NCBI RefSeq assembly: GCF_013167455.1
Contig: NZ_CP038328.1
Direction: 5' to 3' (one strand)
Origin: Escherichia coli O157:H7
GTDB taxonomy: Bacteria > Pseudomonadota > Gammaproteobacteria > Enterobacterales > Enterobacteriaceae
DNA: 64,000 nucleotides
Of the stretch, positions 1-12,000 are shown in pieces; the first letter of the stretch is position 1, and the number at the start of each line of letters is the position of its first letter. Made by a program: the position numbers.

Positions 1-3000
1 TGACCCGTCGTAAGGAGCTTGGTCTGCGTGAAGCACAGCTTGCCCGGCAACAGAAAAATAACGAGCGCGATTTTGAGTTTGCGCAGTCTCAGTTTGAACA
101 TAATAAAAACGTTGATCAGCGGAACTTTGATTACAGAGCCAAAGTTGACGACCGTAATTATGCACTGAAGGAAAGGGAGTTTAACGCTAACCAGAATTAC
201 CGGAATGCGTCACTGGGTATGGAGCAGCAGCGACTCCAGTTGCAGAAATACAACCAGCGACGGCTTGAGTATAACGATATGATTGCCCATAGCCAGCCAC
301 TAATGGAAGCGCTTGGAAAAGCAATTGAGGCTGGCGATCAGGAGGCTGCAACGCGTCTGTTCGGGCAGCTGCCAAAGGGACATCCATTAATTCTTATGTC
401 AAACGAAGGCTATGCAGCGAAAGCGGGTCAGGCCGTGATCAACCTGCAAAAAATCTTTGGTGATAAGCCGGACATGGCGATCGATTCGCTGAATACCCCG
501 GAAAATCTCGATGTGCTTTCCGGCGTGTTTGCCCCGGAACTACAACAGCGTATTGGCATGCCTGATTCAACCGGGGACAAAACGATAAAAGAGGCCAGGA
601 TTGGCAGTATCGTACCAGCGCAGCAGGAAGGGTACGTACTTATTGGCCTTGATCTCACATACAGCGATGGCTCCACCGCGCATAAACCTGTAACAGAATA
701 CGGCAGTGCGCACCCTGATGATCAAACCGTGCTGGCGATACCCGTTGATAAGGCTATCGCTCAGGTCAGGGATCGCAGCAAATTTGCAGAGATATCGAAA
801 AATTATGGTTATTTTATGCCGAAGCAGCAGGGACTTTCTCTGAAAGAGCTTCAGAAGGGGGCCAGCAACGTAGCGGCGGACGCGATCAAGAATGGCGGTA
901 ATGCTCAGGCTGCGGTGGATGAATATTATGCTGCGACTGGTTCACAACCGCATCAACAGAAAATTCAGCAACAAAAACTTCAGCAACAGGTTATCAACTG
1001 GGCGGGAGATGATCCTGATAAGCTGTCATTTGCCAGAAATGTAGCGGCCCGTCAGCCTGAAATGCTGGAACCTCAGAATCAGAAATTGCTGGAGAACGGG
1101 TATGCGAATTTTCTCCGTATTCAAAAGGCCAGGGGGGAACAGGCCAGAGATGAAAGTGCTTCATCTGCATCTCAGTTTATCCGTGGACTGAAACAGAATT
1201 ACGCCCAGTAATTCACGATATTCCATTAATACCATTTCCTGATGCCCGGCCATTGTGCCGGGTTTTTTTATGGAGTCTGTATGGCCTATTCAGAGGAACA
1301 GCGTCCTGAGGCGCAACTCGGTAACCAGAATCGTAACAGCCTGAACATTCAGCAACCCGGCGAAACTGACAGCTATGAAGCATTTTTCTCTGATCCGAAT
1401 CGCTGGAAGGATAACAGTACGTCGTTCAGCCTGGGCGATGTATTGCCAACAATGGGTAAAGGTTTCGCCCAGTCCGTCCGGGGAACAGGGGAAATGGCCC
1501 GTGGACTCGGTGATGCGATGATTCAGAGCCCGGTAAAAACAGGGGCGCGTATTTTAAATGAGTTCAGCCGTATGGGGCTGCCGGGTGTCGCAACTGTGCA
1601 GGATATTTTTGCCGGTGGCAGCAGGGGGGCTGATGAGGTCATCGATACCCTGCCTGATGGCAAAAACGCGGTTACTGATACTGTCGGTAAAGGTCTGAAG
1701 GCAACCGGTAAGGCTGTCAGTGATGGTGCCAAAGCCACTGATGAATGGCTGACCGGTAAGATGTCGCCGGGTGCAGTTCGTGCGCTGAATACGCCGATGA
1801 CCGAAGGCTATAATGATTCTGCGGTCTGGGTGGCGAAGGGTGTAAACCTGATTGGTGCGCTTGTACCTGATATGGTTGCTGGCGGTGTGGCTAGAAAGGT
1901 GGGTGATGTCACACTGCGAAAAATGCTGACCGCCGGGCTGGAGAAAAAATACATCGCGGCAGGGATGCAGCCGGAAAGAGCCACGGCACTGGCAGCAGAA
2001 GCTGTCGATAAAAAAATGCCGGATTTATTCCAGGCGGGCCTGATCACCCATTCCACTGTAAGTGCACAGGGGCAGAGTGCAATGGCGGCAGCAGATGCTG
2101 TTCTTAATGCTGATTACTCTGAGCTGGCGCAGTCACCGAAATTTCAGCAGACGTTTTTGTCCATTGACGCCGACCCGCAGCACGCACAGCTTACTGATCG
2201 CCAGAAAATGGATCTGGCAAAAGAGCGTGTTGCCGATGAGGTGCGCGCGCAGCTGGCAACCGATCCTGAATTGCTGGCTGTGAATGCCATGGCGGCAAAA
2301 CTGGGTGACGCACAACTGTTTAATCTGGTGACACGAGGCACAGCGAAGACCGTTAAAAGCGGCATTGTCAGAAATGCCACGGAACAGGGGGCGATTAATG
2401 CGGCGCAGGGCGGCTATTCACGCTATCAGGAAAACACGGCATTGCGTGAGACCGCCGGAATGGGTGTGTCACCGTGGGAGGGCGTGGCTGACGCAACGAT
2501 CGAAGGTGCAGCCTTTGGTGCTGCGATGGGGGCTCCATTCGGTGCGGTTGCCGGATATCGTGGCAGACGTCAGGCCGCAGAAGAAACCGCCATGCGTGAT
2601 GCTGAAACCGTGCAGCAGGACGACGCAGCCCCGCAACCAGAATCTGTTGATCCGGTGGCGCAGCAGCGTGAATCCATGCAGGGCATGAATCGCGAGCAGC
2701 TTCTGGAGCAGTATGCTGATGCGGATATGGCAACAGAGGGTGACGCATCCGCAGCTCATCGCCGGGAAGCTGCCAGCCAGTTGTTGAATGAACTGGACGA
2801 ACAGACGAAGCGACAGGCTGTGATGAATGAGCTGAAGGCGAAGCCGCGTTCTGAACTGCTTGAGGAATACCGCAGACTCAGCCAGAAAGAGGGGCGCACC
2901 GAGACTGAAGAACAACAGTTTCAGGCAATACGAGAAGTCATTCGCCCACAACAGGAAGTGACGCCGGAAGCACAGTCACAGCCTGAAAATGCGGAGGATG

Positions 3001-9000: not shown

Positions 9001-12000
9001 CGTTTGCGAACCTTGCCATGAATGAAAACTTCATGGGGGCGCAGATTTACCAGGAGAACATGCCGTTTGGTACACCAAAACCTGACAGCCAGCTGGGAAG
9101 ACGTTCAACGCCAGAAGCGTACAAGGCGTTTGCATCCTGGCTGAATGCGTTCTCAGGTGGCAGCCAGTACCGTTCAGGCGCGGTGGATATCACACCGGAA
9201 TCGCTGAAATACTGGGTGGACTATATCTCTGGTGGTACAGGTCGCTTCATTTCCAAAACCACGGATGCGGCGGTGAAATCGCTGAATGGTATTGATATAC
9301 CGGAGCAGCAGGTGCCTTTCCTGGGGAAAATTTCGGGAGAGGTGATGCCGTATGCTGACCAGCAGAAGATGTATGACCGGATGACGGAGGTTGTGCAGTA
9401 CCACGCAGAGCTGAAGAGCCTGAGGGGTTCCGAAAGAACGGCATTCATTGACGAGAACAACGGAAAATTGTCGATGAACGGGCTTATGCAGGATACCCGG
9501 AAGAGACTGAAGGATTTGCGTAAACAGCGTGATGCCATTTATGCCGACAGTACTCTCAGTCTGGCGCAACAGTCGGCGATGGTGAAATCGGTTGAGCGGG
9601 ATATGAAGATTGCCGTGGATCGGTTTAACCGCGAGTACAACAAAAAAGTGGGGGTGGAGTAAGAGAAATTGCCCCGTACTGAAGTGCGGGGCATTCTTAA
9701 CATAATGTGTACATAAGTGAGTACTGTTGTGATGGATGTTTTGGTATTTAATGCATTTAAATCAATGGATTGATATTTATGTTCATTATATCCATTTAAC
9801 TAAGAGGACAATGCGGCATGAGTATACCCGCTAATGGACTGCGGGGTAAGTACGCTGCCGCTCGATTGCTTAAACCCTCGCCATTTATGCCGGGTTTTTA
9901 TCATTTTTCTTAATGTTTTCCGCACGTTCTGCTTTTTGGCGTGCTTCTGCTTTGCGCTTGTTGCTCATGTCGTTACGGATCTGTGCATGACTCATTAACG
10001 CGAAGATAAAGGTGCCGCCGCAGATGTTCCCCGCTAAAGTAGGTAGTGCGAAGGGCCAGATGAAATCGCTCCAGTGCAGCGTACCGTTAAACACCAGATA
10101 GAGGATTTCAACAGAACCGACAACGATGTGAGTGGTGTCACCCAGGGCAATAAGCCAGGTCATCAATATAATCACCACAATCTTTGCCGCACCCGCTGCA
10201 GGAAACATCCATACCATAGTGGCGATCAGCCAGCCGGAAATGATCGCGTTGGCAAACATCTCGCTGGGGGTGTTCTTCATCACATCCATGCCGATTTTGA
10301 CAAATGCATCGCGAGTTTCTTCATTGAAGATTGGCATATATTCAAATGCCCACGCCGCAATACCTGTCCCGAGAATATTACCCAGCAGCACGACGCCCCA
10401 TAACCGCATAAGTAAGCCAACGTTGCTCATTGTCGGTTTTTGCATGACGGGTAGTACCGCAGTCACGGTGTTTTCGGTAAATAATTGCTGGCGGGCCATA
10501 ATGACGATAATAAAACCAAAGGTATAACCGAGATTCTCCAGCAAGAAGCTGCCCGGCACACCTTCCAGTTCGACATGAAATATCCCTTTTGCCAGTAATG
10601 AAGCGCCCATCGACAGACCCGCCGCAATGGCTGACCACAGTAGTGCCATTGCGTCGCGTTCCAGCTCTTTTTCACCATCCTGGCGGATATGCTCATGAAT
10701 TGCCATCGCCCGGGAGGGGAGTCGATCTTCATCTATTTCTATTTTTTTGCCACGCTCTTTTTCTTCGCTCTCAACTTCAATTTCGTCGCTGTGTTGATCA
10801 ATTTTGTCGTTGTCCATGGTCTCTTCTCTTGAATTAGCACGTATAGCTAAAGCGTAGCGGCTTTTTTGCTCGCAACTGGCGGGAGTTACTTTGAAAATGT
10901 AGAAAAGGCCGCGTTTGCCTTTTTCTGTTTCTATAGAATCAAGTAGCCTACAGGGCGGCGATTACCAGGCTATGATCAAATCAGCAAATCAGGGCGTCTG
11001 GACATCAGTTGACGTGCTGTTACAATCGCCCACACCTAAACAGGCGGATACGGTATCGTTCCGTCATGGATGGCAAACTGCATAAGCCATAAAAAAACAG
11101 GGAGACATTTATGAAGCTTCGCCTGTCGGCGCTTGCTCTGGGAACTACGCTTCTGGTGGGGTGTGCGAGTTCCGGTACAGATCAGCAAGGGCGTTCTGAC
11201 CCGTTAGAAGGGTTCAACCGCACCATGTACAACTTTAACTTCAATGTATTAGACCCGTATATTGTTCGACCGGTCGCTGTCGCCTGGCGTGATTATGTTC
11301 CGCAACCGGCGCGTAACGGTTTGAGCAATTTTACCGGCAACCTTGAAGAACCTGCGGTGATGGTTAACTACTTCTTGCAGGGCGACCCTTATCAGGGGAT
11401 GGTCCACTTTACCCGCTTTTTCCTGAACACCATTTTGGGGATGGGCGGCTTTATTGATGTTGCAGGGATGGCGAACCCGAAACTGCAACGGACTGAACCT
11501 CACCGCTTCGGTAGTACGCTTGGTCATTATGGCGTGGGTTATGGCCCGTACGTTCAATTACCGTTCTACGGTAGCTTCACGCTGCGTGATGACGGTGGTG
11601 ATATGGCGGATGGTCTTTACCCGGTTCTTTCCTGGCTGACCTGGCCGATGTCTGTGGGTAAATGGACGCTTGAAGGTATCGAAACCCGCGCACAGCTGCT
11701 GGATTCCGACGGTCTGCTGCGTCAGTCGTCCGATCCTTATATTATGGTGCGCGAAGCGTACTTCCAGCGTCATGATTTCATCGCTAATGGCGGCGAACTC
11801 AAACCGCAGGAAAATCCGAACGCGCAAGCGATTCAGGATGATTTAAAAGATATCGATTCTGAATAAGAAACAAATAAAAAAGGTGAGTCGCAAAACTCAC
11901 CTTTTTTGTTGTTATCCCTCAATTACCACAAGTAAAAGGAGATAAACCGACAATGACCCGGACGTAATTATGTAAAAATACTGATGTTCGTCACTGACTA

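Follow-up and report, generated by a model that had tools for sequence, protein, structure and literature searches.

A giant cysteine-free protein of a short-tailed Shiga toxin prophage in Escherichia coli O157:H7 is probably an ejection protein with partial similarity to gp50 of phage N4

Introduction

Short-tailed Shiga toxin (Stx) phages disseminate the toxin genes within E. coli. A single giant gene, which is essential, accounts for about 14% of the genome of these phages. Mondal et al. (2016) deleted this gene, ORF80 or ECs1242, in phage Sp5. Without its product of 2,793 amino acids (aa) they found DNA-filled heads that were not bound by a tail-fibre antibody, and ORF80 was described as essential, listed among four genes needed for tail formation and mentioned to contain a COG1483 domain (PMC5155283). 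For the ortholog gp47 of phage phi24B a 2026 preprint reported that the protein is abundant in purified virions according to mass spectrometry but unseen in the cryo-EM map. The same preprint lists the domains LPD5, LPD1, LPD38 and MuF-C in gp47 and proposes an encapsidated ejection protein (bioRxiv 10.64898/2026.04.10.717836). Iyer et al. (2017), who introduced the LPD domains in their work on 'polyvalent proteins', listed LPD38 as phage-specific. In this study we analysed a stretch of 64,000 nucleotides (nt) from E. coli O157:H7 (assembly GCF_013167455.1, contig NZ_CP038328.1; referred to as the window), which carries a giant gene of this kind at 1281..9662 on the + strand.

The second system of interest is gp50 of phage N4, a virion RNA polymerase (vRNAP). 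According to a recent N4 study, gp50 is not visible inside the virion and was proposed to be ejected last, crossing the tail as beads on a string, and its N-terminal domain inserts into nanodiscs (PMC12633501). Iyer et al. reported that searches with the N4 N-terminal region recovered only N4-type phages. In the literature that we searched there was no paper linking ORF80 of Stx phages to N4 gp50.

An earlier note on this DNA, made from the sequence alone, had presented the giant open reading frame (ORF) as a candidate for an undescribed system that could not be placed in a named family. Both claims have to be withdrawn. The protein carries the Pfam families LPD5, LPD1, MuF_C and LPD38, all of them polyvalent-protein families of Iyer et al. 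(2017), and its RefSeq product name is 'LPD38 domain-containing protein'. Since the same protein has already been reported as Sp5 ORF80/ECs1242 (PMC5155283) and as phi24B gp47 (bioRxiv 10.64898/2026.04.10.717836), the giant gene encodes a known, named and partly characterised phage protein and no undescribed system. The note was right in assigning it to the giant polyvalent or ejected proteins of phages, within a foreign block that is a prophage. With a probability of roughly 0.7 we regard it as a polyvalent protein for ejection that is located inside the virion and encoded by a short-tailed T=9 Stx prophage, similar to N4 gp50 but without the RNA polymerase and with a protease/RNase cargo. 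Our additions to what has been published are a corrected start, a domain map in which one label is corrected, the homology to the N-terminal and probably the C1 domain of N4 gp50, the proposed delivery chassis with its upstream gene cassette, and the absence of cysteine.

Gene identity and reading frame

In the ORF listing of the window a single ORF on the + strand extends from 1242 to 9662, comprising 2806 codons with no internal stop. The frame of about 2,800 aa proposed before is therefore real and uninterrupted, but its start most likely lies further downstream. The Shine-Dalgarno sequence GGAG at 1272-1275 is found 5 nt before an ATG at 1281, and a terminator-type hairpin with a T-run is located at 1244-1263, 3' of the upstream gene (ORF79) and 5' of this ATG. 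RefSeq and PHROG 616 (2,793 aa) use the same start. Thus, ATG 1281 is almost certainly the true start of a 2,793-aa product (1281..9662, + strand, including the stop codon), and the 13-codon in-frame extension at 1242..1280 (+), which contains the hairpin, the T-run and GGAG, is probably untranslated. The strong hairpin with its run of seven T lies inside the late operon, between ORF79 and the giant gene, whose expression presumably depends on Q-type antitermination.

The large 933W-type ORF represented by PHROG 616 aligns with the giant protein from end to end. By tblastn the protein is 99.7% identical over its full length to proteins of Stx2 phages, and about 185 phage records, nearly all of Stx1- or Stx2-converting phages, contain a full-length copy with at least 90% identity. 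Sp5 ORF80, phi24B gp47 and PHROG 616 represent the same 2,793-aa protein (90-99.7% identical) encoded at the same position as the last late gene. Compared with Sp5 ORF80, only the insertion site (argW in our window) and a few substitutions differ; Sp5 is inserted at wrbA.

The gene was carried by 426 of 5,426 complete E. coli genomes and was full length in 422 of these 426. The gene is real and intact, and an ORF of 8.4 kb cannot have originated by chance. The earlier note had named frameshifts in a fused pseudogene as a finding that would speak against it. We consider a fused or decaying pseudogene of a defective prophage to be so improbable that it can practically be neglected, as the frame is uninterrupted, the gene is full length in nearly all carrier genomes and in the approximately 185 phage records, these records include inducible and plaque-forming Stx phages, and the catalytic residues described below are conserved.

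Domain organization of the giant protein

Positions in the protein refer to the 2,793-aa product unless the 2806-aa numbering is indicated. The protein begins with an Ala/Gly-rich N-terminal domain (aa 46-465; 1416..2675, +) comprising an amphipathic Gly-rich segment (aa 181-205) and a glycine-zipper end (aa ~406-433), with weak matches to Gly-zipper families of Pfam. It is followed by a low-complexity linker (aa 466-1050; 2676..4430, +) rich in Pro, Glu, Gln and Arg. The first 500 aa contain 14-24% Ala and 7-14% Gly, and residues ~500-900 are enriched for Pro, Glu, Gln and Arg, which agrees with the Ala/Gly-rich N-terminus and the Pro/Glu-rich linker noted before. The final ~150 aa of the linker are conserved in relatives bearing the LPD5 cassette.

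This cargo cassette (4431..5600, +) consists of LPD5 (aa 1051-1200), a first predicted zincin metallopeptidase (zincin 1, aa 1182-1437; HEWFHSLD at 5130-5153) and LPD1 (aa 1361-1440). LPD5 and LPD1 were found by Pfam, and the NCBIfam family CLCA_X matches the same region (aa 1051-1440) below its cut-off. A second predicted zincin metallopeptidase (zincin 2, aa 1461-1711; 5661..6413, +) contains HEIIH at 5931-5945 and a conserved Glu1607 at 6099-6101; it was matched by no Pfam family. The protein has exactly two HExxH motifs, as had been noted: HEWFH at aa 1297 and HEIIH at aa 1564 (2806-aa numbering). Both zincins retain the complete H-E-H-E catalytic set, that is HExxH with a downstream Glu, and for zincin 2 a comparison of 64 related domains showed 92-98% conservation of H1551, E1552, H1555 and E1607. 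Both HExxH domains resemble intracellular protein endopeptidases such as MtfA and lethal factor, unlike cell-wall hydrolases. In sequence searches of the PDB neither the complete protein nor a profile of the LPD5-zincin-LPD1 cassette had a match.

Downstream of zincin 2 Pfam identified MuF_C (aa 1750-1839; 6528..6797, +; 1.1e-17). According to Iyer et al. MuF_C is PBECR, a predicted RNase domain of the BECR fold, which is barnase/EndoU/colicin-like (PMC5512222). Here, its His (aa 1752) and Ser (aa 1816) are conserved, and the KH and aSvYG motifs are kept in 17 domains of the family. MuF_C of the giant protein is thus a predicted PBECR RNase-like domain. The phi24B preprint put forward the idea of a 'MuF-C metallopeptidase' that degrades peptidoglycan (bioRxiv 10.64898/2026.04.10.717836). 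Because MuF_C is a PBECR domain with a conserved His and Ser, this label conflates two different domains. Degradation of peptidoglycan by such an enzyme is unsupported, as the HExxH domains lie elsewhere in the protein and are endopeptidase-like.

The remaining 951 aa form a mostly alpha-helical C-terminal module (aa 1843-2793; 6807..9659, +). It contains the Pfam domain LPD38 (PF18857; 8706-9323), matched with an E-value of 8e-49 over model positions 2-189 of 189. A structure model of the module is mostly helical with a pLDDT of 71. The module is strongly conserved, and 43 of its 66 invariant columns are polar, charged or Gly/Pro. The hydrophobic C-terminal segments mentioned in the earlier note exist only in a weak form (Kyte-Doolittle ≤1.22 in a 19-aa window). 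With several unrelated domains in one very large chain and a zincin peptidase as the hub domain, the protein has the build of a polyvalent protein.

PHROG 10089, named 'DarB-like antirestriction', matches the C-terminal region with an E-value of 1e-26, and this raises the question whether the protein acts solely in anti-restriction or anti-defence, as an effector like P1 DarB. Such an effector would be injected together with the DNA, would be dispensable for the injection machinery and would be needed only in hosts with matching defences. P1 DarB is likewise large, packaged in the head and delivered along with the DNA. P1 is a myovirus, and its DarB is non-essential. Iyer et al. (2017) likewise advance anti-defence as their general thesis, and the cargo of related giants includes methyltransferase, SNF2 helicase, ParB, ART and PRTase domains, as is typical of anti-defence polyvalent proteins. 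However, the PHROG match is limited to aa 2364-2694 (2806-aa numbering), the shared LPD38 region, and the methyltransferase and helicase domains that define DarB were not found with Pfam, NCBIfam or PHROGs; an ortholog of DarB was rejected for this reason. Moreover, the gene is essential for infectious Sp5 particles, unlike an accessory anti-defence factor, and the end modules of the relatives are conserved whatever the cargo, pointing to a delivery or structural role. We therefore consider a pure DarB-type effector quite unlikely, whereas an anti-defence role of the cargo alone is compatible with an ejection protein.

The COG1483 domain mentioned for Sp5 ORF80 (PMC5155283) would suggest an energy-using AAA+ ATPase that acts in assembly. 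We regard this as very improbable because the Walker A motif [AG]xxxxGK[ST] is absent from the entire protein and no ATPase family was found by Pfam, NCBIfam or PHROGs. The lack of Walker A and of RNA polymerase motifs had already been noted and was confirmed, and none of the family searches made returned a YD-repeat or haemagglutinin domain. A bacterial toxin of the Rhs/haemagglutinin type was accordingly rejected, also in view of the prophage context. The earlier note had further named placement of the whole protein in a well-characterised family, such as the tape-measure proteins, as a finding that would speak against it. No tape-measure family is among the Pfam or PHROG matches, and this candidate was rejected for a multi-domain protein with a disordered linker in a podovirus with a 22-nm tail.

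Comparison with N4 gp50

Similarity to N4 gp50 was found at the N-terminus. A profile of the N-terminal domain that was built without any vRNAP matches aa 113-446 of N4 gp50 with 34.2 bits, corresponding to an E-value of 8e-13 for a single target, or of 0.0015 when the database size is set to 1.8 billion. The excised N4 segment was scored separately with the --max option and reached 48.9 bits, compared with 8.3 bits for the best of 2000 composition-preserving shuffles, which argues against a composition artefact. We extended the comparison to nine vRNAPs, namely N4 gp50 and eight further diverse sequences of Schitoviridae. The N-terminal profile matches four of the nine at their N-termini (E 3e-13 to 1e-9), and hhalign aligned the N-terminal domains with those of the N4 type over 299 columns with a probability of 98.8% and an E-value of 1e-16. 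At this level of sequence similarity the domain can be regarded as homologous to the N-terminal domain of N4 gp50. Zincin 2 is probably homologous to the HExxH-containing C1 domain, as suggested by an hhalign probability of 89.6% (E 1.9e-6). For the C-terminal module and N4 C2 the hhalign probability was 1.3%, and mismatched controls gave 0.1%.

Both proteins share further features. N4 gp50 likewise consists of an N-terminal domain, a cargo, an HExxH domain and a large helical domain (C2, residues 2376-3500). It is encoded by the last gene of the structural operon, as is the giant protein, and an N4-gp56-type capsid protein is present in both phages. Both proteins are free of cysteine, and both were unseen inside virions by cryo-EM, in the case of the giant protein for the phi24B ortholog. 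Unlike N4 gp50, the giant protein lacks an RNA polymerase domain, and its C-terminal module is unrelated to C2 at a detectable level. Neither the query nor any relative contained a polymerase domain; a polymerase profile built from the nine vRNAPs scored 2.4 bits on the query, and Pfam returned nothing. A virion RNA polymerase was therefore rejected as the identity of the protein. In addition, the upstream partners show no similarity to N4 gp51 and gp52, and the phage itself, unlike N4, is temperate with lambdoid early genes.

Architecture of the giant relatives

A word-indexed protein search with the N-terminal domain returned only relatives from Escherichia and Salmonella, so that an exhaustive search of representative sequences was needed for distant relatives. 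The latter yielded 101 representatives, among them 58 giants of 1,977-4,665 aa in which the domain is always N-terminal. Together with the query protein and N4 gp50 these giants form a comparison set of 60 sequences. When the segments of the query were mapped onto the relatives, the N-terminal domain and zincin 2 were each present in all 58; in the whole set only N4 gp50 had no significant match to zincin 2 (59/60). Zincin 2 is followed by a tail of 820-1,150 aa in nearly all of the 58 relatives. The middle region is variable: about 20 relatives contain the LPD5-zincin-LPD1 cassette, while methyltransferase, SNF2 helicase, ParB, ART and PRTase domains occur as alternative cargo in others. Of the 58 relatives, 32 have an LPD38-like tail. 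Among the others, most (about 25 of 58) have a 'PLxRFG' module of ~900 aa in its place, with the motif ~680-720 aa from the C-terminus. Comparison of both tail types with HMM searches and hhalign gave a match of 25 columns only, which is not significant. The family is characterized by shared end modules around a variable cargo.

Among described proteins, gp75 of Bcep22, gp69 of JC1 and the Ralstonia 'DarB-like' giants resemble the giant protein in several respects: they possess the LPD38 module with a zincin upstream, their genes lie in the context of virion genes, and mass spectrometry showed their association with virions. JC1, a Bcep22-like phage, encodes with gp69 a virion-associated LPD38 protein of 4,515 aa (PMC9144972). 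The Burkholderia giants carry lytic transglycosylase, methylase and helicase domains, in contrast to LPD5-zincin-LPD1 and PBECR in the giant protein analysed here. Our comparison suggests that the annotation 'DarB-like' of LPD38 giants in other phages is misleading. We also checked a cryo-EM preprint on ΦXacm4-11 for a related giant protein; it was not relevant.

Taken further, the Stx giant and N4 gp50 could be two versions of one ancient modular delivery chassis of T=9 podophages, a proposal to which we give an even chance. Such a chassis would consist of an N-terminal membrane anchor, an exchangeable cytoplasmic cargo, a zincin and a helical tail of ~1,000 aa. RNA polymerase, protease/RNase, methylase/helicase, ParB, ART or PRTase would serve as cargo, cysteine would be avoided for threading through tail and periplasm, and outside the Schitoviridae a four-gene conduit cassette would accompany the giant gene.

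Absence of cysteine and the upstream gene cassette

None of the 2,793 residues of the giant protein is a cysteine. In other late proteins encoded by this prophage there are 35 cysteines among 4,175 aa, and at this frequency the absence would occur by chance with P ~6e-11. Of the 60 sequences that make up the comparison set 56 lack cysteine, as do all nine N4-type vRNAPs (3,022-3,632 aa; L004-L012), N4 gp51 and N4 gp52. In the passages of the N4 papers that we consulted, the absence of cysteine in vRNAP, gp51 and gp52 is not remarked on.

Moreover, the four proteins encoded directly upstream of the giant gene are free of cysteine. The last of them is the Sp5 ORF79 homolog (421 aa), whose gene is cut by the window edge so that its 3' part occupies 1..1211 (+); Sp5 ORF79 is also essential (PMC5155283). 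A colinear cassette of four genes (~218, ~145, ~85 and ~420-520 aa) is found before the giant gene in each of four contexts: the Stx phage, Vibrio phage D171 and two contigs of metagenomic phages whose giants differ in tail type. Its proteins are pairwise homologous across these contexts. The cassette lies at 17569-20211 of our locus L001 (its last part corresponds to 1-1211 of the window), at 7971-11504 of L003, at 6933-9748 of L013 and at 287-3193 of L014. A phmmer comparison of five upstream proteins with N4 gp51-gp54 and the homologs of JA-1 and DL64 gave nothing better than an E-value of 0.011. The four genes may represent a conserved ejection cassette, and their products are candidates for conduit-forming proteins.

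One cassette member of 83 aa is annotated as 'bacteriocin' in RefSeq. It may be identical with the 'homolog of a bacteriocin' that the authors of the phi24B preprint dismissed as a non-structural contaminant.

Proposed function

The following course of events can be proposed for the giant protein. It would be transcribed as the last gene of the late operon, as its position and strand suggest. Several copies would be packed in the capsid or in the portal-tail lumen, in line with the detection of the phi24B ortholog and of Bcep22-like relatives in virions by mass spectrometry, and the protein would be required for infectious tailed particles, as in the case of Sp5 ORF80. After receptor binding it would leave through the tail, following or together with the four small cysteine-free proteins encoded upstream, and, loosely folded and free of cysteine, would pass through the narrow channel and then the oxidising periplasm like 'beads on a string'. 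By homology to N4 gp50 the N-terminal domain might anchor in the inner membrane at the end of a trans-envelope conduit. The remainder would reach the cytoplasm where, judging from the identity of the domains, the two zincins could cleave host proteins, the polyprotein itself or both. RNA could be the target of the PBECR RNase-like domain. Together these activities would serve an early takeover or anti-defence. Overall, the protein would work like N4 gp50 or T7 gp16, with a protease and RNase cargo in place of the RNA polymerase. The proposed role also resembles that of P22 gp16, gp20 and gp7, internal proteins which like T7 gp16 are expelled through a short tail, span the envelope and get into the cytoplasm. 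This is a functional analogy only. No sequence or fold similarity to the T7 and P22 proteins was found, and the giant protein has no lytic transglycosylase domain, is 2-4 times larger and carries an enzyme cargo.

Several points weigh against an ejection protein of the N4 gp50 type. The main tension comes from the Sp5 deletion phenotype, as filled heads without detectable tail fibre are unexpected for a purely internal cargo. N4 particles without gp50 look normal. The match to N4 lies in Ala/Gly-rich sequence, and the HMMER bias term is high (32.7). The C-terminal module of 950 aa has no detectable similarity to N4 C2 or to any solved structure, the latter according to a PDB fold comparison, so that the parallel to N4 covers only a part of the protein. 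Furthermore, the protein contains no peptidoglycan hydrolase domain and no strong transmembrane helix (Kyte-Doolittle maximum 1.38). The capsid-internal location is deduced from the absence of the protein in the cryo-EM map, and ejection into the cell is something that we infer for every member of the family.

The Sp5 phenotype also underlies the alternative that the giant protein is a true component of the tail structure or of tail assembly, for instance a scaffold, a plug or a part comparable to a tape measure, located in the short tail or needed for it, and not an ejected cargo. The filled heads of the deletion mutant were not bound by the tail-fibre antibody, and Mondal et al. classed ORF80 as a tail-formation gene (PMC5155283); the phi24B preprint notes internal tail contents that constrain the orientation of the tail (bioRxiv 10.64898/2026.04.10.717836). 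In addition, the giant gene follows the tail-fibre genes. On the other hand, the protein is abundant and yet unseen in the cryo-EM model of the phi24B tail, and a 22-nm podovirus tail has no room for a 300-kDa protein. The protein carries two zincins, a PBECR domain and a disordered linker of 580 aa, and its N-terminal domain has its homolog in an ejected protein. Its cargo varies freely among relatives, which would not be expected for a structural component. The tail defect could also arise indirectly if a part of the ejection protein bound to the portal or located in the portal-tail lumen stabilises tail attachment. Taken together, a purely structural protein appears unlikely to us.

If the giant protein and N4 gp50 are indeed versions of one delivery chassis, Stx phages would inject a protease/RNase 'starter kit' instead of the polymerase of N4, and the first events of Stx-phage infection and of lysogenic conversion would depend on it. 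As N4 gp50 is tractable and structurally studied, the link to it makes a 'giant ORF of unknown function' specifically testable.

Prophage context

The first 12 kb of the window are 99.6% identical to E. coli O157:H7 chromosomes, in which the ORF is followed by yfdC and then mlaA. The gene order is terminase, portal, N4-gp56-type capsid protein and tail fibres, then the giant gene as the last one, and then yfdC. The host element is a short-tailed T=9 Stx prophage of the 933W/Sp5/phi24B type at argW, adjoining yfdC, and in a sister genome the corresponding prophage contains stx2a and an integrase gene beside an intact argW. In Vibrio phage D171 and the two metagenomic contigs, too, the giant gene belongs to a group of late or virion genes. 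Hence, the surroundings are a phage virion module, and the conjugative element which had been considered as another possible context of the gene does not apply.

The giant gene had also been placed next to a tRNA-associated site. ARAGORN found no tRNA gene in the window. A 25-bp copy of the 5' end of argW (tRNA-Arg), consisting of 24 nt of the tRNA and 1 further nt, is located at 9786..9810 (- strand) at the junction of prophage and chromosome just before yfdC and represents the attachment-site core (attR) of the prophage. In a near-identical genome the intact tRNA-Arg gene is found ~61 kb away at the opposite end of the prophage (L002 7999-8073). Integration took place in the 5' part of argW and left the 24-nt fragment of the tRNA 5' end beside yfdC; accordingly, the intact tRNA-Arg at the far end has a 5' end and an upstream region supplied by the phage. 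On the opposite side of argW there is another prophage remnant (L002 3689-7837) with intS and P22-like genes annotated as 'tail needle knob', 'DNA transfer' and 'DNA ejection', which indicates that argW is a repeatedly used integration hot spot. Finally, a 'hypothetical' ORF of 343 aa at 12261-13292 (- strand) between mlaA and fadL lies in a low-GC island with 37% GC, compared with ~51% in the neighbouring regions.

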